A DNA stretch of 64,000 nucleotides from Candidatus Aenigmatarchaeota archaeon. Its GTDB lineage: Archaea; Aenigmatarchaeota; Aenigmatarchaeia; QMZP01; QMZT01. The DNA is taken from NCBI GenBank assembly GCA_041489155.1, contig JBGPQP010000002.1, positions 54,449 through 118,448 on the forward strand, written 5' to 3'. The position numbers were made by a program, and so were the translations under genes. Every line of letters starts with the position of its first letter. Position 1 is the first letter of the stretch. Positions 2,906 through 64,000 of the stretch are shown piece by piece. A model generated the notes under the pieces. That model saw only the letters and a program-made list of their open reading frames with translations, made no database searches and was not told the DNA's origin.

Positions 2906-2912
2906 AGTCTCT

Positions 2913-4403: not shown

Positions 4404-4413
4404 ATCAATCCCT

Positions 4414-5307: not shown

Positions 5308-5337
5308 ATAAAATTATTGGAGAACTGAGTATATATT

Positions 5338-12439: not shown

Positions 12440-12487
12440 ACAACCACCTCAAGCCAAAATCGTTTTTTATAAATAACGCAACAGTCT

Positions 12488-34351: not shown

Positions 34352-35545
34352 TTATTCGAAAATCATTGCTCTCGGCTGTTTCGAGCGCTCTGTCTCCCGC
34401 TCCTCGAACATTCCGATTGCCTGATCTATATCGGTTTTCATCTTCTCAAAGCGCTGCTCGTAGTTATTGACGAAGTCGTTTATGAACTGCGTCATGTGGG
34501 CGCGGAATACCTTTATCTCCTCTGACTTCTTGGCGAGGTCCGACGAGGTTTTCGCCTCGCCCAGCGAGAGACGTGCAATTATTTTGTCGCTTGCCTCGTT
34601 AAGCTTTGCGACGAGATTCTCCTTGAAGATCTTGTTTTCCTCGGCGAATTTCGCGAAATTCTCCTCGCTGATTTTCTTAAGGTTTTCAAGGCCGAGTTCT
34701 ACGTTCTTCAGCCTGTGGTCGAAATAGGAATCCTTTTCCTTCATGGAATCCAAGCGCCCTGCAACGTTCTTGAACTCGTTCATGAGCGAGCCGAAGTCCC
34801 TCTTGAGATTCTCCTTTTTCACGCTGAACATGTCGAGCTTGCCTGCAACGCTCATTTCGAACTCCTCTATTTTTGCTTTCTGCTCGTCAGCGAATTTCTC
34901 GAAGTCCTTTACGTCCTTCGTCAGCCTAGCTTCAAGGGCTTTTGCCTTCGCGACCTCTGACATCAGCTCTTTTTCGACTAAATTCATCCTCTCGTTTATT
35001 CCGCTTTTCAATGCATCCTGCCTTCCCGAGAGCTCTGAAATGGATTTGTTCAGTAAATTCACATCATTACAAAGCTTAGCGATGTTTTTGGCGTATTCCT
35101 CGTTTCTTTCGATGGTTTTTCGTATGCTTTCCTTCAAAGCCTGTGTATCTTTGAGGTTTTTGTCCATCGTGTCCTTTAACTGAGAAGAAAGGGTGGCGCT
35201 TATCGCTTTCGACCTTTCAGTAAGCTGTGCATTTATCTCCCTTCCTATGAGCTTTATGTCCTCCTCTGACTTATTTTTCAGGGCAATCTGCTTGCTCTCG
35301 ACAGAAGCGATTGCCTTTTCAAGCGAGCTCATGAAAGAGCGGATATTCGTAAGCGTGTCGTCTTTTCTCTCGAGCTTTTCCTGCGCGATTTGCAGTTCGC
35401 CCTTGAGAAGCCCGATTTCCTGCGAGTTTTTGTCGCCCGTTTTTTTCACCTGTTCAATTATGTAGTCGTGTTTCTGGCGAAGCTCTTCTTTCTCTTTCTT
35501 TATCTCGTTTATTCTTTCCTTTATCCTGTCAATTTTTTCGCTCAT
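34352..35545 (-). CDS. Long coiled-coil protein (397 aa)
   Basis: E/K/L-rich and helical throughout. ATGA overlap with the upstream gene. Confidence 0.8.
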   Translation of the reverse strand: MSEKIDRIKERINEIKKEKEELRQKHDYIIEQVKKTGDKNSQEIGLLKGELQIAQEKLERKDDTLTNIRSFMSSLEKAIASVESKQIALKNKSEEDIKLIGREINAQLTERSKAISATLSSQLKDTMDKNLKDTQALKESIRKTIERNEEYAKNIAKLCNDVNLLNKSISELSGRQDALKSGINERMNLVEKELMSEVAKAKALEARLTKDVKDFEKFADEQKAKIEEFEMSVAGKLDMFSVKKENLKRDFGSLMNEFKNVAGRLDSMKEKDSYFDHRLKNVELGLENLKKISEENFAKFAEENKIFKENLVAKLNEASDKIIARLSLGEAKTSSDLAKKSEEIKVFRAHMTQFINDFVNNYEQRFEKMKTDIDQAIGMFEERETERSKQPRAMIFE

Positions 35546-38500: not shown

Positions 38501-39147
38501 TCGCCCAGCTCCTTCGCTTTCTTTATGTCCACCTTTTCCATTTCGTTGCGCAAGGCGTTCGCTTGGCGCTCAAATTCCTTCTTGAAGTTGTCTATCGAAT
38601 TCCCTACGCCTATTTTCAGGACGCTGAACTGGTCCTCAATCTTCCTGACGTCCTCGCCGAATTTCGCCTTTATCTCCTCTACCTTCTCGGCGAGCTCTTC
38701 GGAGCCGAACGTCTGGACGGTGGAGATGCGCTTTGCCATGTCTGCGACGGCCTTCTTGAATTCGCCCATGGTCGCCATCATGGCTGCCTGCTTCTCGCTG
38801 TTCTTGACCATCTCGTTCTTGAAATTACCGACTATGACGTTGAAATCATCAACTTTTTTGAGGGCGGAATTTATTGAAACGTCGTATTCCTTTATCTTAT
38901 GCAACCTCACCTCGAACTCGTCGAGCTTCGCCCTTACAGGCTTTATGTTCTGGTCGACGAAGTCAATAAGACGCCTCCCTGACTCCTCGTAAAGGATGCC
39001 TGCCTGCTTGAGCTTCTCGATGAGGTACCTGTTCCTCTCTTCAAGATAATTCTTCTCGTTCTCGAGTTCCGTAAGAAGGCGCTTCTTCTCTTGGTTATCC
39101 TTCTTGAGATTCCTCAGGCCTTCCTCGAGTTCCTTGAGTTCGGTCAT
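35542..39147 (-). CDS. Very long coiled-coil protein (1201 aa) with internal repeats
   Basis: Almost proline-free, E/K/A/L-rich, with a 142-aa tandem duplication and no ATPase motifs. TAATG overlap with the upstream gene. Confidence 0.85.
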   Translation of the reverse strand: MTELKELEEGLRNLKKDNQEKKRLLTELENEKNYLEERNRYLIEKLKQAGILYEESGRRLIDFVDQNIKPVRAKLDEFEVRLHKIKEYDVSINSALKKVDDFNVIVGNFKNEMVKNSEKQAAMMATMGEFKKAVADMAKRISTVQTFGSEELAEKVEEIKAKFGEDVRKIEDQFSVLKIGVGNSIDNFKKEFERQANALRNEMEKVDIKKAKELGEALAHVTEELDKTKVDFSKAIASMEGIVERLDVKKTKEMNQALETLSANLEDKFSSLAADVDKKVIVAEEHLNRFRVELEKTLSKAKVDTRDFVATKSKEFDTLLAELKEKMNAQLQASASEWDKKLGSLRTEIVALKSDVEKLIATINRKVEIGEERREKRIDSEMARLNSALNKKLENTTDDIYAHVAEVSGDVEELKANLGKKIMDAESELTRFRVELEKTLGKAKVDTRDFMVSKSKEFDAVLAGMKDKVDKQVLDSANVWDKNLGSLRTDLITTKEEVEKLVATINRKVEAGEERREKKLDASLTRINASLGKRLEAEAEKLYEQITGINEDIDGLKANLAKSIDMLNRSAETGETKRKAEISGIIKEFMAVKGQVDEKINEVSAELEKFSHASETLRKQITKESLAGVQEKLKMIIDELEKKFEVVEDSMVDKISAMESDVDDLNASFQGITASIKADIEKKMETLRKEFEKRDLAMDKNADLLSKTLQKDIDGRFSALAANTSTQIKQIAAETTSLRKEVDSFTVNLSQKFDSIIKEKSRDFETMVSAVSADAKAKEREINIAISDFKKEIQKTEVQKRTEVDKTLKEFIAEKGKIDEKLKQIDIKIAELSEMRKELKKEIYKESLSGVNERVKDIVEGIGERFENARDDTDTKINELMKTVDMRVREVEANLSQFKVELGKTIGKLTSDVDKATGKKTGEVDKVVEKLKADVEQRVKATISDISDNLDMIKSDLSFAKAEFEKRLSSIKKDFDTSEARRLEKTEKAKKDTDALIESLKVKFQAGERERWIETNKSLKELMAVKGEIGRRLNDLDGETKKFYDIKDSIKNEVMKESTSLIDNKLLAFSKDKKGDISETKKSLRTEVVELQMVLEKLSEKIERLGGKIEAVRDDVYTVKKARTLVIENVKSINRAVEDNVDLKLRDFMKDLEKRMKTQESVLNIRIGETEKKIDSVAESITKTKKEKEEELEELLRHVES

Positions 39148-41060
39148 TAACTCTTCAACTCTTTAAGAAGTATATTTATTTTGTCCCTCTGCCTGTGGGA
39201 CTCTTCCTCGAATTTCCTTTTGTCAGCAAGTGTCTGTTTTACAATAGTGTCAAATTCCTTTGACACCTCGTTCAGCCTGCTCTCCAACACCAGGAACCTC
39301 TTTTCGCTCTCCTTGTTTCTCAGCTCGTTGGCCTTGACCCATTCCCACACGGAAGCGATAGATTTCTCGACTTCGGCGATTTCCTTCAGCGATTCCCTCA
39401 TCTGGGTCTGGCCTTCCTTGAGCTTCTCGGTTCTCGTGTCAAGCTTGGATATGTCGTTTTTCAGAAGATTGAGCGTCGGGTTGACGACGTTCTGGAACTG
39501 GACGAATTCGGCTTCGGAATCCTCCAGCCTGCCGCTGACGTCTTTAGTGAACTTCGCGACATCGGCCCTTATGTTCTTAAGGTCCGGACCGGCGATGTCT
39601 GTGAAAAGGCCTTTCGCCTTCTCCTCGAGCTCGTTCTGGAATTCGGCCTGGTTAACCTTGATTTTCTCTGTTCTAGTGCCCATCTTCTCAAGCTCTTCTT
39701 TTATCATGGAAAGCGTCGGGTTGACGACGTTCTGGAACTGGACGAACTTGGAAACCATGTCGTTGACCTTCGCCCTTGCCACGGCGAGGTTCTTCTCCGT
39801 CCTGTCCTCCAGCTCGAGGAACTTCGACTCTGTCATGTCGTCGAAGAACTCCTTTGTTTTGGTCTCTATCTTGCCGGTGAAGGCCTTGTCGAACTTCAGT
39901 ATCTGGTCGTTAAGCAGATCGGTCCTCTTCTTGAGAAGCGCCTCGAGCCTGTTGGCCATTGCGATGAGATTCGCTTCCTTCTCCTTTATCCTGTCGTATA
40001 TCTTGTCCTTCTCCGTCTGCAGGTCGGAGATGTAATCCCCCATCTTGTAAAGCGTCTTTATCTCGCCCTTGAAGTAGTTCACCTCGTTGAAAAGCGTTTT
40101 TATGTTTTCGCTCAGTTTCTCCACGTCGCTTCTGACGCCTTTTATGTCGTTGAAGACGGGCGTCATCTCCTTGCCCATCTTCTTCTCTATTTCGTTGGGT
40201 ATTATCTCGCCGGTTATCTCGTCGGCTGAAAATATGAACTTCTTGAGCTTCTCGACGTTGCCCGGGCTCATGCGCTCTATGAGGCCTTCAAGCTTTTCCT
40301 CGAAAGTCGGGAAGCGTTCAAGAATTTTTATCTGCTCCTTTATCCTCGTGATTCTAGTGTCCATTTCATCCTTTAGCTCGCGGATGCTCTTCTCCTGGTC
40401 CTTCAGCGAGCTCTTTATCTCGAGCATGTCGTTTTTAATGTCCACCCGGCCGCCGAAGACGGCTAGGCCTTTCGAAACCTCCTCCTCCTTCCTCGGCTGC
40501 TCCATGCGCTCGACCATCTTCCTTATCTCTTCCTGCAGGTCGGCAATCTTCTTCGAGGTGTCCGCCTGGACCTGGTCCACCATGTCACGCAGCTTGCTAC
40601 TCGCCTTTTCCGGCTTCTCGGCTTTGGCGACCTCCTCTATCTTGGTGCTCATGGCTGTGAGCGCTGCCTGGACATTCTTCATCTGCGATTGCATCTGTTC
40701 GCCCATCTTGCTCTCCGCGGCCCTGACCCTGGAATCAACATCAACAGAACGTGCTTCCTTCTCCTGTTCGTTCGCTTCGCTTTCATCGCCAGAAGTGGAT
40801 ACCTTCTCTATTATTTCGGCGAGGCTCTTGGATTTTTCCCGTTCCCTCTCCAGCTCATCCTTGAGGGATTCGACGTCCCCTTCAGAAGCCTTGGCCTTTT
40901 TCTTTGCCTTCCCTTCTTCGCCCTTTTCCTTTTCTTCCGGTTTCGTGGCATCAAAATTCTCTATGTCTTTTATCATGTCTTCGGTCGACTCCTCAGCTTC
41001 GTCGACGCCCTTGCCGAGATCGCCCATTTTCTCAAATTCGCCTTTTTTCTTCGCCATCAA
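39147..41060 (-). CDS. Long coiled-coil protein (637 aa) with 80-aa internal repeat
   Basis: Acidic/charged N-terminus. FVQFQNVVNPTL occurs twice. Confidence 0.82.
   Translation of the reverse strand: MMAKKKGEFEKMGDLGKGVDEAEESTEDMIKDIENFDATKPEEKEKGEEGKAKKKAKASEGDVESLKDELEREREKSKSLAEIIEKVSTSGDESEANEQEKEARSVDVDSRVRAAESKMGEQMQSQMKNVQAALTAMSTKIEEVAKAEKPEKASSKLRDMVDQVQADTSKKIADLQEEIRKMVERMEQPRKEEEVSKGLAVFGGRVDIKNDMLEIKSSLKDQEKSIRELKDEMDTRITRIKEQIKILERFPTFEEKLEGLIERMSPGNVEKLKKFIFSADEITGEIIPNEIEKKMGKEMTPVFNDIKGVRSDVEKLSENIKTLFNEVNYFKGEIKTLYKMGDYISDLQTEKDKIYDRIKEKEANLIAMANRLEALLKKRTDLLNDQILKFDKAFTGKIETKTKEFFDDMTESKFLELEDRTEKNLAVARAKVNDMVSKFVQFQNVVNPTLSMIKEELEKMGTRTEKIKVNQAEFQNELEEKAKGLFTDIAGPDLKNIRADVAKFTKDVSGRLEDSEAEFVQFQNVVNPTLNLLKNDISKLDTRTEKLKEGQTQMRESLKEIAEVEKSIASVWEWVKANELRNKESEKRFLVLESRLNEVSKEFDTIVKQTLADKRKFEEESHRQRDKINILLKELKS
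39472..39746. repeat. 35-bp identical direct repeat (39472-39506 and 39712-39746), 240 bp apart, in frame
   Basis: agcgtcgggttgacgacgttctggaactggacgaa appears twice. Confidence 0.9.
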
Positions 41061-41072
41061 GACACCCCAACC

Positions 41073-41339
41073 CTAACCAAGTTCTTCAATAAGCTTTTCA
41101 ACGACTTTCTCATTCCTTTCTATCCGCTTTTCCAAGTCTGAAATTCTGCCGCCAATGTCCCTGAACCTCATCACGGTTTCTTTGCCTTTGTCCTCATCGA
41201 GATCCATCAAATCCATCTTAAGATTCCGAGGTATAAAATCGCTTTTACCCTTGCCCTCTGTATATTTTAATCTATATAACTTGTATAATAAAAAGCAAAT
41301 CACCGCAAGCAGCGCTATTATCGCCAACTCGTACATCAT
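41073..41339 (-). CDS. Small N-terminally membrane-anchored coiled-coil protein
   Basis: ELAIIALLAVICFLLY TM helix, then C-terminal ISDLEKRIERNEKVVEKL. Confidence 0.72.
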   Translation of the reverse strand: MMYELAIIALLAVICFLLYKLYRLKYTEGKGKSDFIPRNLKMDLMDLDEDKGKETVMRFRDIGGRISDLEKRIERNEKVVEKLIEELG

Positions 41340-41367
41340 ATAAATAATTTTGGCAGGACCCTATAAA

Positions 41368-42141
41368 TTACTTCTTAATCCCTAATAGTTTCATAAAGTT
41401 GGAAAGCAGGCTTTCGGGCTTCTTTTCCTCCTCGCCCAGAATCTTGGCAGCGAGCCTCAGGAACTCCCTGCTGGAGGGGGAATTCGGGGAGAAAAGCACG
41501 ACAGGCATCTTGAGCGCAAGGCTGCGCAAAACGTTCTTGTCCATGGGTATGCTTGAAATGACGGATAGCTCTATGAGCTCCTCGACTTCTTTCGGCGTCA
41601 GCTCGTATTTCTCATTGCCCACCATGTTGAGCACTACGCCCAGAGGCTTGACGCCCATTTCATTCGCCACCTGGTGGCATTTGATTATGTCCATCGTTGA
41701 CGGGACGAAAGGCGTGTTTACGAATATGACCTCGTCCGACGCCCGCACTGTCGCCATCGCCTCCCTTCCAAGGCCGGGCGCGGCGTCAAGCAAAACGATG
41801 TCCGCCTTCCCGAAGAGTTTTTTAATCACGTTCTTCAGTCTCGCAATGTCGACGCCCTTCAGATCGCTGTAGGAAAGCGACGCCGGTATGACACGCAGGC
41901 CGCTTATGTGGTACTGGTATATCGCGTCTTCTATCTTCGCCTCCCCTGTAAGGACCTGATTAAGCGTAACGGGCGTGTAATACATACCAAGGTAAAGACC
42001 CAGATGCGAAGTCGATACGTTGCAGTCGATGACTATGACTTCCTTTTTGAATTTCTGCGCCATGACAGAGCCGAGGTTAGCGACAAGCGTGGTTTTTCCG
42101 ACGCCGCCCTTCCCCGAGATTATCCCTATTACCCTCGTCAT
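41368..42141 (-). CDS. minD: MinD/ParA family ATPase
   Basis: Deviant Walker A SGKGGVGKTT, DAAPGLGRE, LGVVLN, C-terminal amphipathic LLSNFMKLLGIKK. Confidence 0.88.
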   Translation of the reverse strand: MTRVIGIISGKGGVGKTTLVANLGSVMAQKFKKEVIVIDCNVSTSHLGLYLGMYYTPVTLNQVLTGEAKIEDAIYQYHISGLRVIPASLSYSDLKGVDIARLKNVIKKLFGKADIVLLDAAPGLGREAMATVRASDEVIFVNTPFVPSTMDIIKCHQVANEMGVKPLGVVLNMVGNEKYELTPKEVEELIELSVISSIPMDKNVLRSLALKMPVVLFSPNSPSSREFLRLAAKILGEEEKKPESLLSNFMKLLGIKK

Positions 42142-42175
42142 ACCCTACCATATGTTGTTTTGGAGTTTTATATTT

Positions 42176-42847
42176 CTACCATTTAAGCGCGCAAAGTATC
42201 CTCGACAGCTCGTTTTCGTCCTTCACGAGCACTGGGAAATCTACCACGTTCCTCAGCTTCGAGTCCGCCATGCGCATGTAATTCAGCAAATCCCTCTCAG
42301 CCGAGAGGGAGATCATGGTCGCTATCATGCGCAAAACAACGTCCGCTTCGTATTTCCTGCAGAATAGCCTGAGGTTCGAAAACAGGACGTAAAGGAAAAC
42401 GTCCGCGAATATGTGCGGGCCGTATTTCCCGAGAACCTCCTTGTCGTTTTTGTAAAGTATTTTCAGGTTCTTTTTGTCGAATAGCACGGCATGGTATTTT
42501 TCCATGAATTTCTGCACCGCCGGCCATCTCGTGCGGAGCAGGAAATCAGGAACCCAGTTTTCCGCGGTTTCCTTGGCAAAATACCTCTCTCGTACGTAAG
42601 CGGGAATCCATGCGTACTCGGCTCTCAGGCGTTTGCCTTCTTTAGTTATGTAGTTTTCCCTTATCATGCAACGGAAGAGGGGACTTTTCAGGCCGACCTC
42701 GTTGTGATAAAGGTAGTTGGTCTTGACGTCCCACGTGGTCTGTATCTCAAAAAGCGAAATCCCTCTGTCGCCGCCAGCCGAGTTTATCCATATCAGCCAG
42801 AAGTTCTTGTAATCCGTGATCTTCTCCTTGATGCGCATGGTTCTCAC
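42176..42847 (-). CDS. Hypothetical protein
   Basis: 223-aa soluble ORF co-oriented with and just upstream of minD. Confidence 0.7.
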   Translation of the reverse strand: MRTMRIKEKITDYKNFWLIWINSAGGDRGISLFEIQTTWDVKTNYLYHNEVGLKSPLFRCMIRENYITKEGKRLRAEYAWIPAYVRERYFAKETAENWVPDFLLRTRWPAVQKFMEKYHAVLFDKKNLKILYKNDKEVLGKYGPHIFADVFLYVLFSNLRLFCRKYEADVVLRMIATMISLSAERDLLNYMRMADSKLRNVVDFPVLVKDENELSRILCALKW

Positions 42848-42990
42848 TTATATAAATATACTATTCTGAAGGGGCATATAAAATACCACCCCCCGTCCTG
42901 GAACATTAACCGTTTGTTAAACCGAAGAAAAAAATTGTGGTAATTTTATATGAATATACTATTTATTCCATGAGAACCGACAGGCGCTTT

Positions 42991-51900: not shown

Positions 51901-52542
51901 CGTATCCTCTGGGATGGCAATGGTCTTCGTGAAGCTCTTGACGTTCTCGACTGCGAGGGTCTCGCTGTTCCTCGTTATGACCCTTTCAGTCTCCAGCCCC
52001 TTTACCACATAGCTGACCACGATGTCCTCTATCTTCGCCGTCTGGCCCATGTTGAGCAGCGTGACCTCGAACTTCAGGCTGCCGCCTGGCTCTACCGTCT
52101 TGCTCAGCGTCTTCACGGTTACGTCAAGCAGCGGTTCCGGCGGAAGCTCGACCTTTATGGTCACAGGCGTAATGTGCGTTATGTTCTTGCTCCTGATCTT
52201 CGAAACTATGTCGCCTGTGTATATGCCCGCTTGGGTCGTCGGCAAGGCAAAAAGCTTGATCTTGAGAACGCCTGTCGACCTGCCCGGGACCGTCATTACA
52301 GGCTTTTCTATCTGCACAAGCTCCCATGCATTCCCCGTCACGCTGGTTTCGACTTCCACGCTCTCCCCGAGGTTGTTAAGCACATCTATTGAGTGTATTT
52401 CATGCTCGCCCGGACGAAGAGTGACAAATATAAGAGTGGACTTTATCTCGACGGGCACAGGCGGCACGCCCTGCTGGCCACCGGCTGCTCCGGCAGCTGC
52501 TCCTGCGCCTGCTCCTGCGCCTCCGGCTGCGCCGCCACCGCC
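43943..52542. repeat. 32-bp identical repeat at 43943-43974 and 52511-52542 (Gly/Ala linkers of both surface proteins)
   Basis: gctcctgcgcctccggctgcgccgccaccgcc appears in both genes and encodes GGGGAAGGAG. Confidence 0.85.
48972..50552 (-). CDS. Cytoplasmic coiled-coil protein (526 aa) with three SHOCT-like helical hairpins
   Basis: LEDAYSEAAILEDDY, LEDEYKNKSISKEEY and LEETYKKGFISKEAY. No TM helix. Confidence 0.82.
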   Translation of the reverse strand: MGKRVKKDRVRKSVTKKTPASRKAAKTEPLPAESLEQLMHQKEEIEALLSSLEDAYSEAAILEDDYNDIKEKNEKKLQEINRKIDSLSKRQPVAAIEPIRAPAPTRLPRLPVAIPTFEEEAEEAEEKPEEKKEKRGKAKGEKTVAGISEDDIEKLEIDLAEKIKEMVEDIGTKVTEKDLLEMKNSFAKFEAEIDKMKAQVEAVKEGKRIDEEKIQHVAEGVAEIRTMVYGREASVKEQEIKFEKVMDVMGRIEPDKILMDMGRRDKEIGNLGLRLSKLEETTKEFGEMLKRIETLLRNIGSLEHVLSISNDASEKLMEMGDIQRVNTKMRDKIQGIYAELSKRMEEFMLYRAKQERVEDLLNEVMKNLNDLSTKSAYFITKDDLESFRSAIQTTMAAQPVSTVESYSLDSQKEEIEMLLKTLEDEYKNKSISKEEYEKMRNANLAKIREIESKMKGGGKAAPPPRMTEEEPAPPKKPAAKERKPEVPKEAKSRNEMLLKDLEETYKKGFISKEAYEKTRKVILGKK

Positions 52543-55500: not shown

Positions 55501-58500
55501 GTCGGCCGGCAGGGTGTCGTTCCTTATCGCCACCACGCCCTGATATAGGCCTTCGGGATATGACGAGGGGACAGTGTATGAAATGTTGATGGTCCTTGTC
55601 GAGAGAGGCAGCGACGCAAAGCTTTCAGGTGTAACAGTAAGCAAGGGTCCGGCTGCTTCCCTTCTTATCGTCATGAAGTATATCTCGACGTTGCCGTCGT
55701 TTACGACTTCAACCTGGCCTATCAGTTTGCTCGTGTTTGGCTGGGCTATGATGGTCGCAAATGACGGTGGCGTTCGGCTCCACGAGGAGTTCATAGGCAC
55801 GCTCAAGTTCATCAGATATATGTCCGACCCGCCGTTAGTGGAGTTCGCGGTTATGTACGTCCAGTATAGGCCAGGAGCCTTGCCTTTGGGTATGGTGACC
55901 CAGATGTCTGACGTGAAATTGTATCCTGCGGCCAGGTCTCCCTGATAGTCAGGAACGATATCAAGGGTGCAGTCGTAGCAGTCGTAGTCGAAGTTGCCGC
56001 CCTGGTTCCTGATGTATATGTTACTTACTCTGTCGTTGCCGCTCGAGTAAACAGTGATGTTGTCGATGTACGTCGTCTTATCATGCGGCGTCGTCCTGTT
56101 CATGCCTGTCTCAAGTATCTCTACGATGGGGTTGGAGGCGACGGTGACGTATGTGATATTTGTGTAAGAAGTATAAGTCTTGTCAGGCTCCATCCACGTA
56201 GCATTGCCGAATACGTTTATGCCGGTTGGCGGTGTGGCCGGCAGTATCGTAACCGCTACCGTCCAAATACACTCGGAAGAGACTGTCATGTTGCCGCAGA
56301 AGTGCGATGTTTCATTGTAAGAAACGTAGCCTGACGAATCGTCATATATGGTGAGGTTGACGTAGTATGCGTTGGGCGGACCAAGATTTGTGTAGTTGAT
56401 GGTGAGATTGAACTTGAAGTCGTTGGTTTGTGTTATGCCGCCAGCGTAGACTGTGACATTCTGCCTTACGCTTCCGGTCGCCTTGCCCCATACCGTGAAA
56501 TAATATACAGCAGACATGTTCACGTTGAATTCAGGGCCTGTGTCCTTCGCGAATATGGTGATGTTATACGTACCGTTGAGTTTGGGCACATAGGTAACCC
56601 TATACGTAGCGAAAGTTATATTGGACATTGTCCTGTTCTCATAGCTGCCGTTGGGAAGGCCTATGTAAGCCCATACGCTATCAATCTTGTAATCATCGGC
56701 CACAACAGCCGAGATATTTGTATAATTGAGATACGCTTCTATGCTGGCATTTGGCAGGACGGAAACATTCGTGATGTTCGGCGCGATTTCGTCCCTGACC
56801 CATATTATCGCGCTCGCGCTATCTATCCTTGCCGTATACTGTAGCGTGGAGTTGGGGCCTATGGAGCAGTTGAAAGTTACGTTGCCTTTGTCGAGCGGGG
56901 TCCAGCTTGCATTGGCCTGCCCGCTGGAGTTGGTCAGGTATGTGCCGTTGTAGACCCACTGCCCAGAGGTTGAATTCCAGAATGAAATGTTAACCGGATA
57001 GTTGGGGACGCCTGTGCCTGAAATGTAGTCAATTACCGTGCATATCCTCTGGAATTCGAACGGGTACCTAACGCTTGAAAGGTGCGGTGGATAGGTCCAG
57101 TAAACATCTGCCCAGCCTGTCATCTGGACTACGACGCTTTCGTTCTGCGAGTAATAATGCGCCAAGCTGGGCTGGGTTCTTGCGGTGAAGTTCCTGAAAC
57201 CCGGATCCTGCGTGGAGGAATCGAACATGGTCTGCTCGCCTGAAAGCGTGGTGTAAATGTTGTTGCCCGTGTCGTTGTACCAGTAAACCTCGATTGTCCC
57301 TATTACCCAATTCCAGTTCTCATCCCTTATGCTGGCGTTGAAAGGAATGAGCGCGCCTTTGCCGTATTGCGTTTCGCCGCTCTTTTTGCCGGGCGAGGTG
57401 ATGTTGGCAATGTAAACGCCCATGACCTCTATGATTGTGCTGTTTGTGCTTGAATTGTCGTTGTTCGTTTCCTTGGTGGCATTAATATATATCATATAGT
57501 AAGTAGGCATCAGCGTGTCTTCAGGATTCCATGAAACGGACTGGTTACACCAGCCTGAAGAGTTGGTCGTGCAGTTGCCTATGTAGCCTAGCGAGTTGTT
57601 GTAGAACCACACCGTGGCGTTTTCGGCACCTTCTCCTGCGAGATCGGCATCCCTTACATGGACTGTCACGTTGACCTCGTGCGGCGCATAAGAATCATTC
57701 CTGTATATCATGCCGTTTGATGGAATTCTCGCTATCTGGTCTATGACGAGGGGCCTTGTCAGGTCTATCTCGTGGGTTATGTTTTCCGTCGAAACGTTGT
57801 AATATCTGCTGGCGTTGCCTGTTATCGAGCAGGTGAGGTTGTACCAGCCCGGCGGCCTGTTCGTGCTGAAATAGAACGTCGCATTGCCCTCCTCTCCTGT
57901 TTCGTTGCTCGTAAGCTTCGACTCCTGATAAGTGCCGTTGATGTAGAAGCTGACGTTGTAGTAGTAAAGGTTTTCATATGTGTTGGTGTCCCTCACGTGG
58001 CATTTTATGGTCTTGGTGGTGCCGGCGATGTAGACTGTTCCGTTGGATGGGCTCATATCATTGGGTTCTGCCCAGCCGAATACGTAAACATCGGTCGAGT
58101 TGGTGTTGTTGTCATAGTATATCCTGCTGGTGTTCGCCCTTATTACGTCCGGGCCAAGCGAGTAATTGAAGGGAATGAACCATGTAGTGTTGTATCCGGA
58201 CGCTAGCGCATTCCAGCTCTCGTTGTACCAGGTTACGTTGGAATCGTTAAGGTAAAGACTGCATTCGTCATTCACGGTTGCGTTCAAAACCACGGTCGTA
58301 TTCCTGTTGAGTATTACGTATGAGCCGGGGTTAACGATGGATACGTAAAGCTGGCCGATTACTTGAAGCGTGGTATTGGTGGAGTTCTCATACTCGTAGC
58401 AGGTATCGTTAGTCGCGCCTTTCCAATACTGTACGCCTACCAACGATGTGGAGCAGTTGGGGTCGTAATTTACCTGGCAGTGGCCGCTGCTGGTGTTGCA

Positions 58501-61500
58501 AAACCTTACATTCGTGTAGTTCTGGCCGTTGTCTGTTATCCATATCAGACCGGAAACGCCTGTCGGGTAATAGCTACCATTCGGGTTCATGTAACTCATG
58601 TCGTCGTCCCTTATCCTGAACTTGAGCAGGGCGCTGGCGCTGCTGTTCCTTCTCACAGTTGTGTTGCTGACGGTTGTGTTGAGGGCAAGGGTGACGCTGT
58701 CCTCGGTTATGTTGAAATTTTGTGGGTTGGTCTGGGCAGTGAAGTTGTACGGGTCAGTAGTGTTAAACTTGTAATAATTAAGCCTTCCGGGCGCCTGCTG
58801 CGAATCGCTGCATGCGAATCTCTCATAGAAAGACAATGTTGTTCCAGACGAGCTTTTCGTCTGGGAATCTACATAGTTCCAACTCTGATTGTCAAAGCTC
58901 TTCCACAGCGTTATGTTATTGACGTCGGAATCAGCGTCGGCGAAATAGACGCTGAAGGTGTATCTGTAGCCCCATCCTTCAGACGCTGGGCTGACCGCTG
59001 GGCTGGTCAGGACAGGTGAGGTTCCAAGGTGGAACGCGTAACCCTCCATGGTCGAGTTAGAAGCGTAATAGCTCTTGGCCACGCTCATGGTAATGTTCCA
59101 TCTGACCCTGAGCTGGCCTGTCGAATCCCAGGTGCAGTTGTAGTAGCCGCCGCCTTCCTGCCAGTTGGATGTGCAGTAACGTGTCGGCGTTCCCGACTCG
59201 CCGACCAGCACGTATCTCGGCGGGGGATTGCCTACCGACACGCCTTGCACGCCTCCGTCGGCAAACCTGTACGAACAGTCGTCTTCGACGTAACCGCTTA
59301 CGTTAATGATGTCTCCCTGAAGGAAACCTTTCGCTCCGATCGGATTTCTTACATCCGGTCTGAGCTCGCCCCAGATGGTCAGGTTATATGTGCTCGAGTT
59401 TGCTGTTTTGTAACACGTGTCCGCGTAAAGGCCGCCTGTTCCTGCCACCCATTCTTGAACGCCGACCGTGTAGTTGCATTCGTGCATGGGCATCTCTCCG
59501 TCTTCGAGGAAGTTGTAATTTATGTGGCCGCTGCCGTTTATGTCTATGAACTTCCCAACGTCCCAGGAGTTCGGGTCAGAAGCGTTTCTGGTGACCCATA
59601 TAGTTGCGTTGCCAGAACCTGCATAGTCGTTGTTATCGCTGTCCTGAACTCTTACGCTTAAGAATGTATATTCGGTGCCATTCCTCCAGACGTTCGGGTT
59701 CGTATGGCCTGACTCCGGCGCGAATATCACATCGTCCTTCTCGACGCTGAAGTTCTTTTCAGATGTCGAATCCTGATAGTCGTGGGGGATGTCGGTGGCG
59801 TTGAACCTGAAGGTCCAGTTGCCTATGGTCGGGCAGCCTATGCCATAAAAGTCATCGCTAAGATTAAGTACGACTGTCTGGTTTACTGGCGCAATAAGCA
59901 GAACCTCGTCGTCAAGGTGCCAGTTCTGATATGTCGGGTCGCATGAACCAGTAGTTGCCTGCAGGCATTTCACGTAAAGCTGCAATGTCACATTGTCGAG
60001 ATCGTCGTCGTTTACCGTGACGCTGAAGCTCCTGTTCTCACCCCAACCAGCCGGTTCCTTTATAACCGAGTCATTGAAAATGCTCGGGAAGGTTTTTATG
60101 AAGAAATGATCCTCTAGCAGGCTCGAGTTGCTGTTGTAAAGTTCTCTTGAGGCATTGGTGGTCGTGTTGTACCATCTTGCCTTCATGTCGGTCGTGTTCC
60201 TCATGCACTCATAGAAGCCGTCGGAGATTATCCTGTAAACATTAGCGCAATTGTACGAGTTTCCGCCTTCGTTCACGAAGTAGATCGAAACGTTCGCATC
60301 GTTCACGTAATCTCCAGCGCAGTCGCTGTCCACGTAAACCTGCTGCGTGACATTTTCGCCTCTCAGGATTTCATCGCCTATGTTTGGCGAGGGCGGAAGA
60401 ATGTATATTATTTGTGGCACAAGAGTTCCGCGTATCGTGAGCTTAAGCTCTTCGCTAGTATTCAGTTTTTGGTAGCATTTATCGGTTGTCCCTGCCTTCC
60501 ATGAATGGTTGCCGATCGTGTAGAAGGGGTCACATTCCGGGTTGAAGGTCACGTTCGCGAGACCTGAAGAGTTTGTTTTTGTGAGGTTGCCCGCATCCCA
60601 GCTTGACGGATTGGAAGCATTGAGCGTGACCCAGAAAGTCACATTGACATTCGACGGCGCAGACTCGTTCCTGTCTGTGTCGTTGACGAAGACCATGAGA
60701 AGAGCTGAATGTTCAGGTTCTGTGTCTGACCTGTTGAGCAAAGAAAGGTTGCCATAGTGATACGTTATGCTAGCGCTGTCTGCAGTTATGTTGGGAGCGG
60801 AGACGTTTGTTGTGTTAAGTATGTTTGTGCCGTCGTATAATTCGAACATGAAGGTGTTCACGCTGTTGTTGCCTATGTCATCACAGTCGAAGTCATCCAC
60901 AATCAGCGAGCACTTGCTTCTGCCCCCTACTACCAGCGTCGAGTTCTTCAGTACCCACTTGTTGCCGTATTTGTTGGTCTTCACGAAGAGGCTGCATGTC
61001 ACGTTGTCCGTCTGCATATCCCAGACATCAACGCTGTAATTGAAAACCACACCCCACCCGTCCTCGCCCGGCGTCACGGACAGGTTGCCGTAGTCGGGTA
61101 TGGTGTTGTTGAGATAAATATGGTTCACAAGGACGGTACTGTTGCTGGTATAGTTCATCTTGGAGGTGTTAAGCTCGATTGTCCAGTTTCCTCCCTGATG
61201 CAGGAACGTGTTCCATGTGCAGTTGTAGTAGCCGTTGCCGTCATCGAAAACGTACTGCGTCGAGTTGCAATGTTCCCATACACCTGAAGGCGACCTGAGC
61301 CTTATGGTGGCGTTGGAAAGGCCTGTCTGCAGACCTTCGTTGCTGCAGTCCGTCGAAACGTTGAACCTTATGGTGACGTTGTTGCCTACTGGCACGACTG
61401 GCTGTCCGCTAGTCCAGTTCGGCTGCTGGATACTGTTCTTGAGCTGGCCATATACTAGCACCCTGCTGCCCCAGTAGAATAAATCATCATCATAGCAACT

Positions 61501-63999
61501 GTCGTTGTACGAACCGGCGTACCATTTTAGTAGGCCGACGCTGAAGGTGCAGTTGGGGTCGAAGGTGTGTGAAAGGTTCCCGTCAGCATCGGTCGTTGTC
61601 GTGTTTATGAATATGAAAGCGCCTGGATAGGTGTCATTGCTCAGGTTGGTCATCATTCTGAAGGCACCCTTTATGCCTGCACCAAGGCCTATGTCGTTCC
61701 TGTCGCTGTCGTTTATCCTAATCTTCAACAGCCTTGAGCCTGAACCTTCCCTGTATATCGGGGCTGTCGTGCTGGAGCCTTCTATGTAATATGACTGAGT
61801 GTCATCCCTGAGCAGGGTGAAAGGTTGCACGTCCTCGTCCCTGTAGCTCCACTCGTCTATCGCGGTTATGTTGTATTGTTTCTGGCTCGAGGTCTGACCG
61901 AGAAGGTCGGAACAGCTGAAGTTGTGGCCGGTGAAGCTGAGGGATGACGTCGCGGTCGTGTTGGTGCTGTTAAGATATACCCAGCTTCCCGTGAGATTGG
62001 CCCACAAGGAGACGTTCATCACTCCTCCATCAAGATCCTGGAGGTTGTTCACAAGGAAGCTCCATGACTCTCCCCAGCCTCCGGTGGAGCCTGACATTGC
62101 CTGGGCTGATGTGCTTCCTATTATCGGTACCGTTGCAAGGTAGAATGAATTGTTCTTCTTGTATGTGGTGCCGTTGTAGTAGGTTTTGCTTACCACCGCA
62201 GTTGCATTATACCAACCAGTGTTCCAAGACGCATGCACCCCTCCGGCGATGGTGCAGTTGTATATGCCATTCCCCTCATAAAGAGTTCCGGAACATGTTT
62301 CCTTTATGGTCTCGCTTCCCTGCTGGAGAACATTGAAGGTTACCACTGCATTAGGCAGTGCGCCACAATCGTCAGTTACGTTGCCTCTGAACACTATGCT
62401 GTCGGTGCCTCTTACCCTAGAGATGCCGTCAGGGTCGAGCAGCACAGCAGTGATGTTCTGCGTCTTCATGGTCCAGTTGGCTATTGATGAGTTTGTAGGC
62501 TTGTATATGTCACTCGTGATTATGCCTGCTTTCCAGTATTGCGGTCCTATCGCAAAGGAACAATCATAGAACTCTGCTTCGGGATCCTCGTCTCTGAACC
62601 TTATGATACCTGCGCTAGCGCCGCCGCTCGTGGTTTTAACTTCAGACTGATACCATATACTATTAGAGACGTTCTTTGTGTAGTAAAACAGACCTTCTGT
62701 ACCAGGATATACTTCCTCGTCTGGATCGAGATCGGTGTCGTATATCTTTACCTCCCACAGGAAGTCCGGGCTGGTCCTGTCGATGACGCTGTTGTTGCCC
62801 AGCGTGATATTGACAAACACGTCATCTCCTATTAATGTGAACGGCGTGACTGGCGTCTGATCGGAATATTCAACGCCGCCGGAATACGGGTCATTTTCGT
62901 TATCGGTGACGTTAAATTTGTACTCAGCCGGCCCTATGTCACCGCTGTGGAAGTAGGTGTCGCTGGTTTTTATGAATATGACAGTCTGGTTTAAACCGAT
63001 GACGGTCTGGTTGCAGCCCGCGTTGCCCCACGTGTTGCTCTTGTTCACGTAGACGCAAACCTCCATCATGTCCATATCCTCATCGCTGGCGTTCACCGTG
63101 AACGTGTATGCCTCCCCCCAGCCGCCGTCTCCAGATGGTGTCAGCGACCACCCTGTAAGAACCGGTCTGGTGTCTATGAAAAAGGCGAAATTCGCCGTGT
63201 CATTGTCAGGGTTGTAGAAACTCCTGTTTGAATAAATGTTTATGTGGTAGAACCTTGCAGGCATGCCTGACGTGTTGAAGGTGCAGTTGTAGGTGCCGTT
63301 GCCTTCCTCAAGTATCGTGGTGCAGTTGAACTGCTGACCTGTGTCGTTGTGTATCATGGTAAGATTAATGTTGGAAGCAGAGCCAGTGATATTGTTGCCG
63401 CAGAAGTCCCTGAGCCTTACCCTTATTGTCACATTTGAGCCGCGAATGTATTGCGAAGACGCTCCCATAGAGCTTATGGGAGAAATGAAGGTGTTGTTCA
63501 GGTCGCCTATAACGCGTAGAGTCAGGTTGCCTGTGTAATTTTTCTCATCATAATAGCTGTCAACAGTTCCTCCTTTCCACTCCCTTATGCCTGGCTTATA
63601 GCTGCAGTTCGGGTTAAAAGTGTAGTTTATGTAACCGTTTGCTGTTTGGGAGCGGTTGCCCGCGTCCCATGCAGTCTCGTTGAACATGACCCATATGGTA
63701 GAATTGACGCCCGAGGGATAGGATATGTTGTCTGTGTCATTCACCCTTAACACAAGCAGGATCGAGCTGTCAGGATTCGAGTCGCTTATGTTGACGTTTG
63801 AGTTGTTGCCTGCCACGTAGAGTATCGTGACATTCGACCTCTCGAGGTAAGGGCCGTATGCGACGCTGGTGTAATGCTCGTTCGCTGTTTCTCCGTCCTT
63901 GATGAGGAAGCGGAACGAGTTGTTGCCGATGTCGTCGCCGGTGAAGTCATGGACGGTGACGGAGCAGTTCCTGTTGACTATGCCGGTTGTGTTGTAGAG
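50602..63999 (-). CDS. Giant surface protein (>4465 aa, 5' end beyond window) fused via one TM helix to a C-terminal HerA/FtsK-type ATPase
   Basis: The frame stays open from 63816 to the window edge (LYNTTGIVNRNC...). It has ~340-357-aa repeats, a TM near 51700-51790, Walker A GATGSGKS, Walker B LIYDEVHR and CREFRKWGIGVFMISQ. Confidence 0.92.
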   Translation of the reverse strand, partial: LYNTTGIVNRNCSVTVHDFTGDDIGNNSFRFLIKDGETANEHYTSVAYGPYLERSNVTILYVAGNNSNVNISDSNPDSSILLVLRVNDTDNISYPSGVNSTIWVMFNETAWDAGNRSQTANGYINYTFNPNCSYKPGIREWKGGTVDSYYDEKNYTGNLTLRVIGDLNNTFISPISSMGASSQYIRGSNVTIRVRLRDFCGNNITGSASNINLTMIHNDTGQQFNCTTILEEGNGTYNCTFNTSGMPARFYHINIYSNRSFYNPDNDTANFAFFIDTRPVLTGWSLTPSGDGGWGEAYTFTVNASDEDMDMMEVCVYVNKSNTWGNAGCNQTVIGLNQTVIFIKTSDTYFHSGDIGPAEYKFNVTDNENDPYSGGVEYSDQTPVTPFTLIGDDVFVNITLGNNSVIDRTSPDFLWEVKIYDTDLDPDEEVYPGTEGLFYYTKNVSNSIWYQSEVKTTSGGASAGIIRFRDEDPEAEFYDCSFAIGPQYWKAGIITSDIYKPTNSSIANWTMKTQNITAVLLDPDGISRVRGTDSIVFRGNVTDDCGALPNAVVTFNVLQQGSETIKETCSGTLYEGNGIYNCTIAGGVHASWNTGWYNATAVVSKTYYNGTTYKKNNSFYLATVPIIGSTSAQAMSGSTGGWGESWSFLVNNLQDLDGGVMNVSLWANLTGSWVYLNSTNTTATSSLSFTGHNFSCSDLLGQTSSQKQYNITAIDEWSYRDEDVQPFTLLRDDTQSYYIEGSSTTAPIYREGSGSRLLKIRINDSDRNDIGLGAGIKGAFRMMTNLSNDTYPGAFIFINTTTTDADGNLSHTFDPNCTFSVGLLKWYAGSYNDSCYDDDLFYWGSRVLVYGQLKNSIQQPNWTSGQPVVPVGNNVTIRFNVSTDCSNEGLQTGLSNATIRLRSPSGVWEHCNSTQYVFDDGNGYYNCTWNTFLHQGGNWTIELNTSKMNYTSNSTVLVNHIYLNNTIPDYGNLSVTPGEDGWGVVFNYSVDVWDMQTDNVTCSLFVKTNKYGNKWVLKNSTLVVGGRSKCSLIVDDFDCDDIGNNSVNTFMFELYDGTNILNTTNVSAPNITADSASITYHYGNLSLLNRSDTEPEHSALLMVFVNDTDRNESAPSNVNVTFWVTLNASNPSSWDAGNLTKTNSSGLANVTFNPECDPFYTIGNHSWKAGTTDKCYQKLNTSEELKLTIRGTLVPQIIYILPPSPNIGDEILRGENVTQQVYVDSDCAGDYVNDANVSIYFVNEGGNSYNCANVYRIISDGFYECMRNTTDMKARWYNTTTNASRELYNSNSSLLEDHFFIKTFPSIFNDSVIKEPAGWGENRSFSVTVNDDDLDNVTLQLYVKCLQATTGSCDPTYQNWHLDDEVLLIAPVNQTVVLNLSDDFYGIGCPTIGNWTFRFNATDIPHDYQDSTSEKNFSVEKDDVIFAPESGHTNPNVWRNGTEYTFLSVRVQDSDNNDYAGSGNATIWVTRNASDPNSWDVGKFIDINGSGHINYNFLEDGEMPMHECNYTVGVQEWVAGTGGLYADTCYKTANSSTYNLTIWGELRPDVRNPIGAKGFLQGDIINVSGYVEDDCSYRFADGGVQGVSVGNPPPRYVLVGESGTPTRYCTSNWQEGGGYYNCTWDSTGQLRVRWNITMSVAKSYYASNSTMEGYAFHLGTSPVLTSPAVSPASEGWGYRYTFSVYFADADSDVNNITLWKSFDNQSWNYVDSQTKSSSGTTLSFYERFACSDSQQAPGRLNYYKFNTTDPYNFTAQTNPQNFNITEDSVTLALNTTVSNTTVRRNSSASALLKFRIRDDDMSYMNPNGSYYPTGVSGLIWITDNGQNYTNVRFCNTSSGHCQVNYDPNCSTSLVGVQYWKGATNDTCYEYENSTNTTLQVIGQLYVSIVNPGSYVILNRNTTVVLNATVNDECSLYLNDSNVTWYNESWNALASGYNTTWFIPFNYSLGPDVIRANTSRIYYDNNTNSTDVYVFGWAEPNDMSPSNGTVYIAGTTKTIKCHVRDTNTYENLYYYNVSFYINGTYQESKLTSNETGEEGNATFYFSTNRPPGWYNLTCSITGNASRYYNVSTENITHEIDLTRPLVIDQIARIPSNGMIYRNDSYAPHEVNVTVHVRDADLAGEGAENATVWFYNNSLGYIGNCTTNSSGWCNQSVSWNPEDTLMPTYYMIYINATKETNNDNSSTNSTIIEVMGVYIANITSPGKKSGETQYGKGALIPFNASIRDENWNWVIGTIEVYWYNDTGNNIYTTLSGEQTMFDSSTQDPGFRNFTARTQPSLAHYYSQNESVVVQMTGWADVYWTYPPHLSSVRYPFEFQRICTVIDYISGTGVPNYPVNISFWNSTSGQWVYNGTYLTNSSGQANASWTPLDKGNVTFNCSIGPNSTLQYTARIDSASAIIWVRDEIAPNITNVSVLPNASIEAYLNYTNISAVVADDYKIDSVWAYIGLPNGSYENRTMSNITFATYRVTYVPKLNGTYNITIFAKDTGPEFNVNMSAVYYFTVWGKATGSVRQNVTVYAGGITQTNDFKFNLTINYTNLGPPNAYYVNLTIYDDSSGYVSYNETSHFCGNMTVSSECIWTVAVTILPATPPTGINVFGNATWMEPDKTYTSYTNITYVTVASNPIVEILETGMNRTTPHDKTTYIDNITVYSSGNDRVSNIYIRNQGGNFDYDCYDCTLDIVPDYQGDLAAGYNFTSDIWVTIPKGKAPGLYWTYITANSTNGGSDIYLMNLSVPMNSSWSRTPPSFATIIAQPNTSKLIGQVEVVNDGNVEIYFMTIRREAAGPLLTVTPESFASLPLSTRTINISYTVPSSYPEGLYQGVVAIRNDTLPADPVEQTITMWLNVTDMPPNITSYSVYPTAFEMIFGSTTINATITDNFGVNSGWIDVKVPGQFNYYNTFEETHPYFQDSGYNYTEEVTYTGTMEHFNVTILNQNETTVYVNITVNGFPVAVGQQIQTMSNLTVDAVVAGANFTLPGNQTVNVTILNSGGQVITTIYTSWINYTVRAENHYMGAMSRNGSFFNTTYASNISGNHELRICANDTSSRTGCTSIIYLTVAGNTSLYVKPNMTVINVTNITLYQGAQIPVDFNITNIGYARAYTVTVNVSYLQNWAAAPELFYFGTLYSTNVSSNSTIVSIPAFTLPGEYAVNFTANWTNINQSYLGSNTTSIIFNITANPLLDLQNRIPIAGENVIMSGSIRNVTFNISSVGNVNVTNVTFNCTSGIVCYNFTNYFTPQNISLLAYNTTEFVNITLSIPDEYPAGHYNGTLVATGDGTSDWAYIYVNIPENISWTQEPNNITRDVIQGTSGNFGTITVRNNGNVYAGVDVYAFTGDIWSRISFVPTHLSLDVGETEYISINYSAPVTTSVTNYYGILWTYNMSYDPSYHETLLNMTVHPYFVNITSPTETSPKLNVSPADNLEVIMSVIYGTLPLGANVTFNVSLFNSTMRSYVTLTSASYNATEGLWHINFSAPDLALQKGYDLNVTVIYARTSSLNLSYYDIEYKAFIYKDEVPPSILISVPPRVPAGTVATIYANVTDPGGVNNASIVVYDPNGTANYGNMTFVYKDADTYVYRYYYANTSQTGMYSVNVTGCDKTGNCNSSTKSFEIFIGIWFSGYATDIWRSDHPVVNQSFWFYDNIGNLLLNFTHNKTSGYYNESIDARTYDLTVQFWNNALSLTSVPLLQNVHNPVQFGNVSKVVPTGGAGVYRNIMINNSLTYSLGTITLNYSDIADIVNIATVGVYQCSSFNLLNCSLGWTRLTSVLNATASTLMVNSTNLTGLFAIADYICGDGQCSTTYGESVATCSSDCALPPQPPTPPGGGGAAGGAGAGAGAAAGAAGGQQGVPPVPVEIKSTLIFVTLRPGEHEIHSIDVLNNLGESVEVETSVTGNAWELVQIEKPVMTVPGRSTGVLKIKLFALPTTQAGIYTGDIVSKIRSKNITHITPVTIKVELPPEPLLDVTVKTLSKTVEPGGSLKFEVTLLNMGQTAKIEDIVVSYVVKGLETERVITRNSETLAVENVKSFTKTIAIPEDTPQDRYVVEVNVTYWYGKKSAYAVDSFDVFVLPAPLALLRAVFMHWITYAIAFGAIPGVYFGRRLYMMWRDKKKKARKYIFPLDFNKLPKPGPDTIPVGKIAETDVKAYIDTKALMMHSLAAGATGSGKSVSAMICAEELLKRGMPIIVFDPTAQWTGFMKACKDKRMFDLYPAFGMKPDEAMAFKVNIVLVTDPNMEVDVQKYRKPGEMTVFVMNKLEPEHLDNFVRKTVTSVFKAALGEEKELRLLLIYDEVHRLLPKYGGKGGYIALERACREFRKWGIGVFMISQVLMDFRGAIRANIATELQLRTKYEGDIGRVKTKYGMDYASKVVKLTTGTALVQNPAYNDGKPYFISFRPLLHDTGRLTDEEIEKYVKVQQEIEKIDKQIEALKTRKIDTTDMEIEVNLAKDKMKAGQFSMAESYIESLKARLKA

Positions 64000-64000
64000 G

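Follow-up and report, generated by a model that had tools for sequence, protein, structure and literature searches.

The subject of this analysis is a cluster of nine genes in Candidatus Aenigmatarchaeota archaeon (assembly GCA_041489155.1), whose genome comprises 1.13 Mb in 39 contigs and is 89.65% complete. The cluster lies in the last 64 kb of contig C2 (JBGPQP010000002.1), and this stretch of 64,000 nucleotides, called the window throughout, supplies the coordinates used below. By inspection of the open reading frames (ORFs), nine co-oriented minus-strand ORFs, numbered G1 to G9, occupy positions 34352-63999; three-digit handles such as G105 denote genomes. The features are as follows.

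50602-63999, minus strand: G1, the final 4,465 codons of the gene for a giant membrane protein of the SPEARE family, 5' end open; glycosylated ectodomain, Pro/Gly linker, NEW3/Ig-like domains, one transmembrane helix (residues ~4061-4095, window numbering), HerA-fold ATPase (~4110-4400) and C-terminal three-helix bundle.
50602-51750, minus strand: cytoplasmic tail of G1, with Walker A, Walker B, presumed arginine-finger segment and sensor.
48972-50552, minus strand: G2, a 526-residue cytoplasmic helical protein with a coiled-coil core and three helical hairpins.
42991-48969, minus strand: G3, a 1,992-residue type I membrane glycoprotein with a signal peptide.
42848-42962, minus strand: intergenic element of about 115 bp, with two boxes, a palindromic core and a G-run.
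42176-42847, minus strand: G4, a conserved soluble protein of 220-223 residues (223 here) without a family match.
41368-42141, minus strand: G5, an archaeal MinD of 257 residues belonging to a G1-linked subfamily.
41073-41339, minus strand: G6, 88 residues; a membrane helix at the N-terminus and a short coil at the C-terminus.
39147-41060, minus strand: G7, a coiled-coil protein of 636-637 residues with a conserved core, the marker of an optional scaffold block.
35542-39147, minus strand: G8, a 1,201-residue coiled-coil protein with an internal 142-residue duplication.
34352-35545, minus strand: G9, a 397-residue coiled-coil protein.

The genes are packed as the initial annotation described, with all nine frames present, TAATG at the G7/G8 junction, ATGA at G8/G9 and a 2-bp gap at G2/G3. 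The G3/G4 gap amounts to 143 bp, or to 152 bp with G4 starting at the ATG at 42838, a start that fits the G4 orthologues. Two huge sequon-rich proteins were likewise annotated correctly: G1 holds 268 sequons against 79 expected from composition and G3 116 against 34, and the other seven proteins lie at or near expectation. G7, G8 and G9, together 2,235 residues and so close to the 2200 first proposed, are taken as coiled coils because they show a 3.5-residue periodicity with z values of 14.5, 21.7 and 11.7 over shuffles; the length of G8 differs among relatives, and G9 was matched in the closest relatives only. Contigs of two sequencing runs, a possible source of the assembly, tile most of 44001-64000 with zero differences, and depth triples across the last 140 bases of the window, which points to a collapsed repeat at the contig break. 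The initial guess of a DPANN host was right, since the genome belongs to the Aenigmatarchaeota and the ATPase relatives are 77-94% identical, four of ten being so titled.

The cytoplasmic tail of G1 is a RecA-type ATPase of the HerA fold, and ring formation is predicted from that fold. The structural model of the tail (predicted local distance difference score 89.5, predicted template modeling score, or pTM, 0.87) matches Sulfolobus HerA best (PDB 4d2i; Z 26.0, root-mean-square deviation 2.8, 252 aligned residues), followed by VirB4 (Z 23.6), TrwB (19.9), FtsK (18.5) and STIV2 B204 (17.1), and the match to HerA by profile has an expectation value (E) of 2.3e-13. On these three counts the earlier assignment to HerA/FtsK ATPases is upheld. 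Walker A (GATGSGKS), Walker B (DE), REFRKWG and SQ are invariant in 54 of 54 aligned tails, and we take the last two to be the arginine-finger segment and the Q sensor of this class. Unlike HerA, the tail is fused behind a transmembrane helix to a giant ectodomain, carries an extra C-terminal three-helix bundle and has an insert between the Walker motifs that is about 70 residues shorter. It also misses the HerA equivalog cut-offs by far, and the pattern of a HerA-NurA system (a soluble HerA, a HAS barrel and neighboring nurA, mre11 or rad50) does not occur among the nine genes.

Across 201 genomes of the phylum, the tail profile matched 93, the longest frame counting 14,526 codons, and in a representative library it matched 420 clusters at E <=1e-30. 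Three proteins labelled Nanohaloarchaeota (P0127, P0136 and P0140) have tails that are 43-47% identical to that of G1, and one of them, P0140 (labelled Ca. Nanohalobium sp.), aligns over 1,209 columns at 28% identity (E 4e-130), spanning ectodomain, transmembrane helix and ATPase; the comparison is by these three proteins, with the type proteins NAR1_1133 and SVXNc_0300 outside it. A quick tree of 71 tails places G1 in an 'a' clade of Aenigmatarchaeota, separate from the nanohaloarchaeal rows. Tails labelled Thermococcus, Heimdallarchaeaceae, Thorarchaeota and Nanopusillaceae fall among Aenigmatarchaeota in this tree; they may be mis-binned and are not used as evidence of range. Charged C-terminal extensions occur in 68 of 246 ATPase-tail homologues (P0149-P0279), many with a repeated small domain and, where labelled, from a Woesearchaeota-like branch. 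G2 as a fusion to the ATPase was also considered, and none of the 68 extensions matched the G2 core.

The initial annotation could match the locus to no named system. In this it did not hold up, since G1 falls in the SPEARE family, for which a role as a device for host contact or secretion had been proposed before. Hamm et al. 2019 (PMC6642349) describe SPEARE proteins in Nanohaloarchaeota, one of which was shown to be made, and report similar tails in Aenigmarchaeota, Woesearchaeota, Micrarchaeota and Altiarchaeales, having found none in Nanoarchaeota and Parvarchaeota. Reva et al. 2023 (PMC10266531) re-read the protein as immunoglobulin (Ig) repeats and a transmembrane helix followed by a VirB4/TraG-like ATPase and a coiled coil, suggesting that it acts as a secretion straw. 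Laminin-G, protease and propeller domains were assigned to the ectodomain by Hamm et al., and the protease is rejected by Reva et al. (PMC6642349, PMC10266531). G1 shares with SPEARE a very long extracellular region (4,060 residues with all 268 sequons in the window, about 13,000 residues in all), a single transmembrane helix on the C-terminal side, then a cytoplasmic HerA/VirB4-like ATPase and a terminal helical bundle, and a tail homologous to those of nanohaloarchaeal members. It differs in its length, in its other subclade by the quick tree and in its start, which is a winged helix with a G-Q signal, where SPEARE has a plain Sec signal and propellers. The downstream gene is G2 here, whereas Reva et al. 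report a second ATPase (PMC10266531). A tandem second ATPase was seen in four halophile-type loci (L151-L154) and in L175, and is a trait of the locus rather than of the protein. In L151-L154, the giant ATPase-tailed gene is followed by a 625-residue membrane-anchored paralogue with a near-identical ATPase, and G2 comes next in L153 and L154.

The portion of G1 in the window is only the last third of the gene; the ATPase-tailed giant of the initial annotation is real and much longer than it appeared. In the window, 4,060 ectodomain residues are present, the last sequon (4043) stands just ahead of the hydrophobic segment, and units of about 345 residues cover the first 1,900 residues. Open-ended pieces with G1 repeats occur on contigs C13, C25, C29, C32 and C39. 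Compared with the G1 gene of a genome of the same genus, G159, the collinear order is C13, C25, C29, C32, C2; since that gene spans about 39 kb, a length of about 13,000 residues is indicated for G1. An unbroken copy of 14,525 residues exists in one genome of the same family, and ectodomains across the G1 family range from about 2,000 to 14,500 residues. C39 and C32 overlap one G1 stretch at 83% DNA identity, an indication of strain variants or of a variable segment.

The 5' part of G1 occupies C13:1-11604 on the minus strand and encodes, in frame, a winged helix-turn-helix (HTH), a G-Q motif, a hydrophobic signal helix and 3,800 residues of ectodomain. The HTH matches Pfam HTH_IclR below the cut-off on C13 (E 4e-4) and above it in G151 (E 1.3e-7). 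Among 15 closed G1 N-termini, an HTH is present in three and the G-Q motif in nine, and the frameshifted G159 copy likewise carries the HTH. The G-Q motif is common to pilin-like ORFs in the genome, where two A24 peptidases are present; an A-x-A site for the ordinary signal peptidase lies after the hydrophobic helix, and two G1 copies have an internal Met ahead of the motif. The segment may be a class III (prepilin) signal or may be processed by the ordinary signal peptidase. The fused winged-helix domain suggests a route for regulating a gene of about 39 kb in a 1.1-Mb cell. Beside this start, a divergent gene for a 155-residue HTH_24 regulator lies upstream on C13 and is conserved in G096 and G159. 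The HTH of the G1 type is also fused to a glycoprotein of 1,736 codons (G000:C4:62630-67837) and is found by itself in two small genes close to surface-protein genes (C17:6246-6491 and 12312-12578).

G2 is a constant neighbor of the ATPase. In 40 downstream stretches, hand-picked from the ATPase matches for long contigs and a spread over families, G2 was found within one or two genes in all 40 (in one case as a 74-residue piece at a contig end). Of 76 metagenome loci fetched, four were too short; among the 72 assessable ones, G2 was found within 6 kb downstream in 63. The G2-positive metagenome set includes the halophile-type loci L153-L155, whose ATPases group with the nanohaloarchaeal rows or have a tandem second ATPase. 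G2 consists of a conserved coiled-coil core (residues ~150-395) and hairpins at 35-87, 408-456 and 495-520. The initial annotation called it a SHOCT adaptor: the hairpin repeats are real, and the SHOCT label is weak, since matches to PF09851 and PF20612 (13.8 against 27 bits and 16.1 against 24 bits; Pfam E 0.013-0.049) stay below the Pfam cut-off. The hairpins may be described as SHOCT-like or GvpG-like only. The monomer model of G2 reached a pTM of 0.23 and was kept out of the fold comparisons. As to its range outside Aenigmatarchaeota, protein searches gave close relatives only; Atlas clusters of unnamed Nanobdellota and Woesearchaeota proteins resemble G2 at 0.88-0.90, which is a lead only. 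Weak matches to the G2 profile (17 genomes, best E above 1e-30) were excluded before counting; of ten such neighborhoods, nine adjoin topoisomerase I and XPF-like genes, the tenth (G162) is located elsewhere, and G1 adjoins none of them. As a separate observation, a G1-G2 pair of the b type stands directly 5' of pilin-like genes in L065 (G033) and L069 (G136), and in G033 these are followed by an apparent pilus ATPase and two platform proteins, by labels read from sequence.

G3 is related to both G1 and G2. It consists of a signal peptide, an ectodomain, a Pro/Gly linker, a NEW3 domain, a helical stalk, a transmembrane helix (1886-1904) and a cytoplasmic hairpin. Segments of its ectodomain are shared with G1 (25-27% identity, E 2e-14), its Pro/Gly linker is 93% identical to that of G1 over 44 nucleotides, and the hairpin of its tail scores E 5e-11 against the profile of the G2 hairpins. 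A G3 homologue (E 1e-60 or better) was present within 20 kb in 29 of the 40 loci.

In the second half of the locus, G4 has no match in Pfam, NCBIfam or PDB sequences, and its Atlas scores are below 0.9; winged-helix look-alikes at 0.81-0.85 are a weak lead only. G5 is an archaeal MinD by its score above the TIGR01969 cut-off (238.8 against 201.75 bits), and with its deviant Walker A motif and amphipathic C-terminal helix it resembles Archaeoglobus MinD-1 (PDB 1hyq); a MinD with a membrane-targeting helix, as first annotated, is confirmed. It departs from archaeal MinD in its partners, which are of unknown protein kinds, and in its switch-I DxD motif, where Asn replaces the second Asp. This replacement occurs in 43 of 43 members of the subfamily and 16 of 21 other MinDs (59 of 64), including the other MinD of this genome. 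In E. coli MinD, the second switch-I Asp is needed for hydrolysis; its replacement is frequent among DPANN MinDs, and ATP hydrolysis by MinDs of the G5 type may be slow or otherwise triggered. MinD homologues as such occur in 200 of the 201 genomes. Among 20 loci outside the order that hold a G5-type MinD, a G3-like membrane protein of about 420 residues precedes MinD in 13. In families f12, f13, f16 and f25 (L131-L150, for example L141:16167-17745), a conserved basic protein of 85-95 residues and no known family also precedes it. Haloferax MinD proteins position the motility machinery; in the present genome (89.65% complete) no archaellin (PF01917) was found.

Co-occurrence was counted over the same 201 genomes, with thresholds set after the scores were seen and with kin that are not independent. 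Against a base rate of 93 in 201, a G1 match was present in 87 of 88 genomes with a strong G2, 61 of 63 with a full-length G3, 36 of 40 with G4, 51 of 57 with the MinD subfamily (E <=2e-85) and 31 of 34 with G7, and all six occur together in 30 genomes. The a-type ATPase and the MinD subfamily share one contig in 30 of the 46 genomes that have both, always within 28 kb and in 27 cases on the same strand. Conversely, G105 (same genus, 90% complete, 40 contigs) is without G1, G2, G3, G4, G7 and the MinD subfamily alike. Gene order is kept in six of six loci of the same family (in two of them with G6 uncalled and G9 unmatched) and in one f3 locus. Homologues thus co-occur and cluster as the initial annotation anticipated, both across the 201 genomes and in the fetched loci, and the block of MinD and coiled coils is not always independent of the surface proteins. 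Nevertheless, the locus is not one fixed operon. It consists of two modules, a G1-G2-G3 core and a G4-G9 accessory. The gap between G3 and G4 holds a T-run and TATA-like boxes, by which separate G1-G3 and G4-G9 transcripts are likely.

The same gap contains the intergenic element, a 115-bp sequence in which two AT-rich boxes of 16-17 bp flank a palindromic core and a G-run. Four copies exist in the genome (window 42848-42962, C2:10696, C4:9498 and C11:3343). Each of three genomes of the same genus has four copies and G105, where the locus itself is absent, has three; the element is not particular to this locus. Convergent genes flank two of the four copies, the copies are syntenic between genomes, and in G159 all four face away from cdc6, as would happen once in eight by chance. 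No Rfam family matched. A cdc6 origin box was ruled out as its identity, and the arm spacing does not fit the geometry of a dif site.

Taken together, the locus may encode a SPEARE-type apparatus for host capture and attachment in two modules, a reading to which we give about an even chance. The genes, their topology, fold, conserved motifs, co-occurrence and clustering are the observations from which we infer its oligomeric state, binding, host contact and positioning. The HerA-fold tails of G1 would form a ring under the membrane and bundle the giant ectodomains into a long tether, which by rough estimate could reach about 0.5 micrometre if some 130 Ig-sized domains were extended. G2 would be the cytoplasmic coiled-coil partner of the ring, and its hairpins together with the homologous hairpin of the G3 tail could provide a link between the ring and the shorter G3 stalks. 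ATP turnover would most likely assemble, tension or release the tether rather than pump cargo via a dedicated channel. Attached to the membrane by the helix at its tail, MinD would form a scaffold together with the G6 anchor and the coiled coils G7-G9 and so fix the position of the apparatus; this accessory module, G4-G9, is present in part of the lineage only. The match of G1 to P0140, labelled as a protein of a host-attached lineage that makes proteins of this type (Hamm et al. 2019), supports host capture, as do the invariant catalytic motifs and HerA fold of the tail, the closeness of G2 to the ATPase, the nesting of the partners in G1-positive genomes, the linkage of MinD to the a-type ATPase, the joint absence of six components from G105 and the G2-like hairpin of G3.

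Several observations weigh against this interpretation. No laminin-G, protease, propeller or known adhesin domain was found in the parts of G1 that were scanned, those in the window and on C13. Of 60 genomes whose G1 is of the a type, just 31 carry G7, and in family f4 the G4-MinD pair is inverted relative to G6-G8 in all seven loci holding both, or is displaced; the single fixed nine-gene organelle first envisaged is not supported. In the 20 loci outside the order, coiled coils follow the G5-type MinD in three. Surface genes cluster in these genomes, and linkage is possible without a shared complex. G1 is unmatched in 108 of the 201 (incomplete) genomes of this putatively symbiotic phylum, and Ca. 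Nanohalobium constans is without the giant protein (Reva et al. 2023, PMC10266531), from which it follows that SPEARE is not a universal attachment device.

A broader version, taken as a whole, is distinctly unlikely. It would make the locus a DPANN-wide and still undefined contact machine in which a G1 ring with an obligate G2 powers a tether as long as 14,500 residues. The tether would be anchored in the membrane at either end, or its pilin-like N-terminus would feed it through a type IV filament, and cleavage of the prepilin type at the G-Q motif would free the winged-helix domain as a transcription signal that conveys the state of assembly. MinD, G6 and the coiled coils would fix the machine at one pole, where it would draw in host nucleic acid or deliver effectors.

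Turning to the alternatives to host capture, it is rather unlikely that the G1 ring is a true translocase which, after docking, pulls nucleic acid or polypeptide through a pore of G1 helices. It would then feed nucleotides to the symbiont or deliver effectors, as Reva et al. proposed for the proteins of Nanohaloarchaeota. The fold of the tail is common to the DNA pumps HerA, TrwB and FtsK and to VirB4, the top NCBIfam match is the DNA-import ATPase CedD, the minimal insert resembles those of compact packaging ATPases such as STIV2 B204, and the motor is membrane-tethered as in coupling proteins. However, the CedD match is far below its cut-off (38.5 against 600 bits), about 70 residues of the HerA insert are missing, and a shared fold reveals no substrate. 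None of the nine genes encodes a multi-pass membrane protein, and in ten of ten proteins scanned no type IV secretion, Ced, pilus or nuclease family reached its cut-off; none of the VirB4, VirD4 and CedD equivalogs, VirB6, VirB8 and CedA was found at the locus, with matches far below cut-off. The macromolecule transfer suggested by the initial annotation is unsupported, as no channel gene was found at the locus.

An unlikely account is that G4-G9 is a separate system, comprising a MinD/ParA protein, a DNA-binding G4 and coiled coils, that organizes the chromosome or the cell pole and stands beside G1-G3 through the envelope cluster only. The G3-G4 gap is the largest in the locus and contains the T-run, TATA-like boxes and multicopy element; G4-MinD is inverted in f4, and two genomes have the block 20-28 kb away from G1. 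The winged-helix look-alikes of G4 and the near-ubiquity of MinD homologues point the same way. On the other hand, the element is also present in G105, which is without G4. G7 and G4 are nested in G1-positive genomes; all 31 G7 cases carry an a-type G1, and in two of the three exceptions the block is next to a contig end. In the 13 distant loci where MinD follows a short G3-like membrane protein, it is linked to surface stalks, not to DNA.

It is improbable that G1 and G3 are the cell's own coat or spacer layer (for example stalks resembling S-layer anchors, or a shield against viruses or predators), with the ATPase and G2 aiding assembly or shedding and with no host contact. The N-glycosylation sites are very dense, the ectodomain varies from about 2,000 to 14,500 residues, no known adhesin domain was found in the parts scanned, and G3 ends in an Ig domain, a helical stalk and a transmembrane helix, which is the layout of S-layer anchor proteins. 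Yet a 13,000-residue protein would be a costly coat for a 1.1-Mb genome, a positioning ATPase suggests a localized structure, and the family is reported in host-dependent DPANN lineages (Hamm et al. 2019). Finally, a canonical type IV secretion system, conjugation system, type IV pilus or archaellum is very improbable: VirB4 is among the fold matches, TraC and TraD match weakly, G1 has a pilin-like G-Q start and b-type G1-G2 pairs lie upstream of pilin-like genes in two relatives, but all type IV secretion matches are below 20 bits against cut-offs of 366-567, no PilB/FlaI ATPase, platform protein, pilin or archaellin is among the nine genes, and the PilB/FlaI-type ATPases (PF00437) lie on C1, C4, C5 and C19, off the locus contig.

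Single large, envelope-spanning host-contact structures made of unknown proteins have been described in the Nanobdellota YN1, YN4 and Nanobdella aerobiophila (PMC11420986, PMC11104419, bioRxiv 2026.06.04.730037). The resemblance to the proposed apparatus is in kind; no gene links the two. Since Hamm et al. found no SPEARE tails in Nanoarchaeota and Parvarchaeota, the cone-shaped Nanobdellota organelle is probably not encoded by this locus.

Elsewhere in the window, positions 1494-5997 include a second DUF87/AAA-like ATPase (433 residues), 3' of two T2SSF platform genes and a zinc-ribbon gene. At 6011-8353, a geranylgeranyl reductase-like gene has a LAGLIDADG domain inside, probably an intein. 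At 31241-32167, 2 kb from the end of the locus, an HTH is fused to a Pfam S_layer_C domain (E 5.5e-13).

G1 is itself a new member of the known SPEARE family; its partners constitute a new parts list. The partner set of G2, G3, G4, the MinD subfamily and the coiled-coil block, together with the N-terminal HTH and the G-Q signal, did not turn up in the literature searched, in which few subscription papers were covered. The partners go unmentioned in the available parts of Hamm et al. 2019 and Reva et al. 2023, and the locus goes undescribed in those of 10.1101/2023.11.21.568195, PMC11329633, PMC9563170 and PMC13705601. SPEARE proteins were known as lone giants, at times with a second ATPase; to these can now be added a nearly invariant cytoplasmic partner in G2, a second stalk with a matching tail in G3, a linked MinD subfamily and a scaffold that is optional. 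Expression and assay of the small cytoplasmic parts would need no culture of the organism, and the presence of G2 homologues after the ATPase in halophile-type loci puts the claim within reach of existing nanohaloarchaeal co-cultures.

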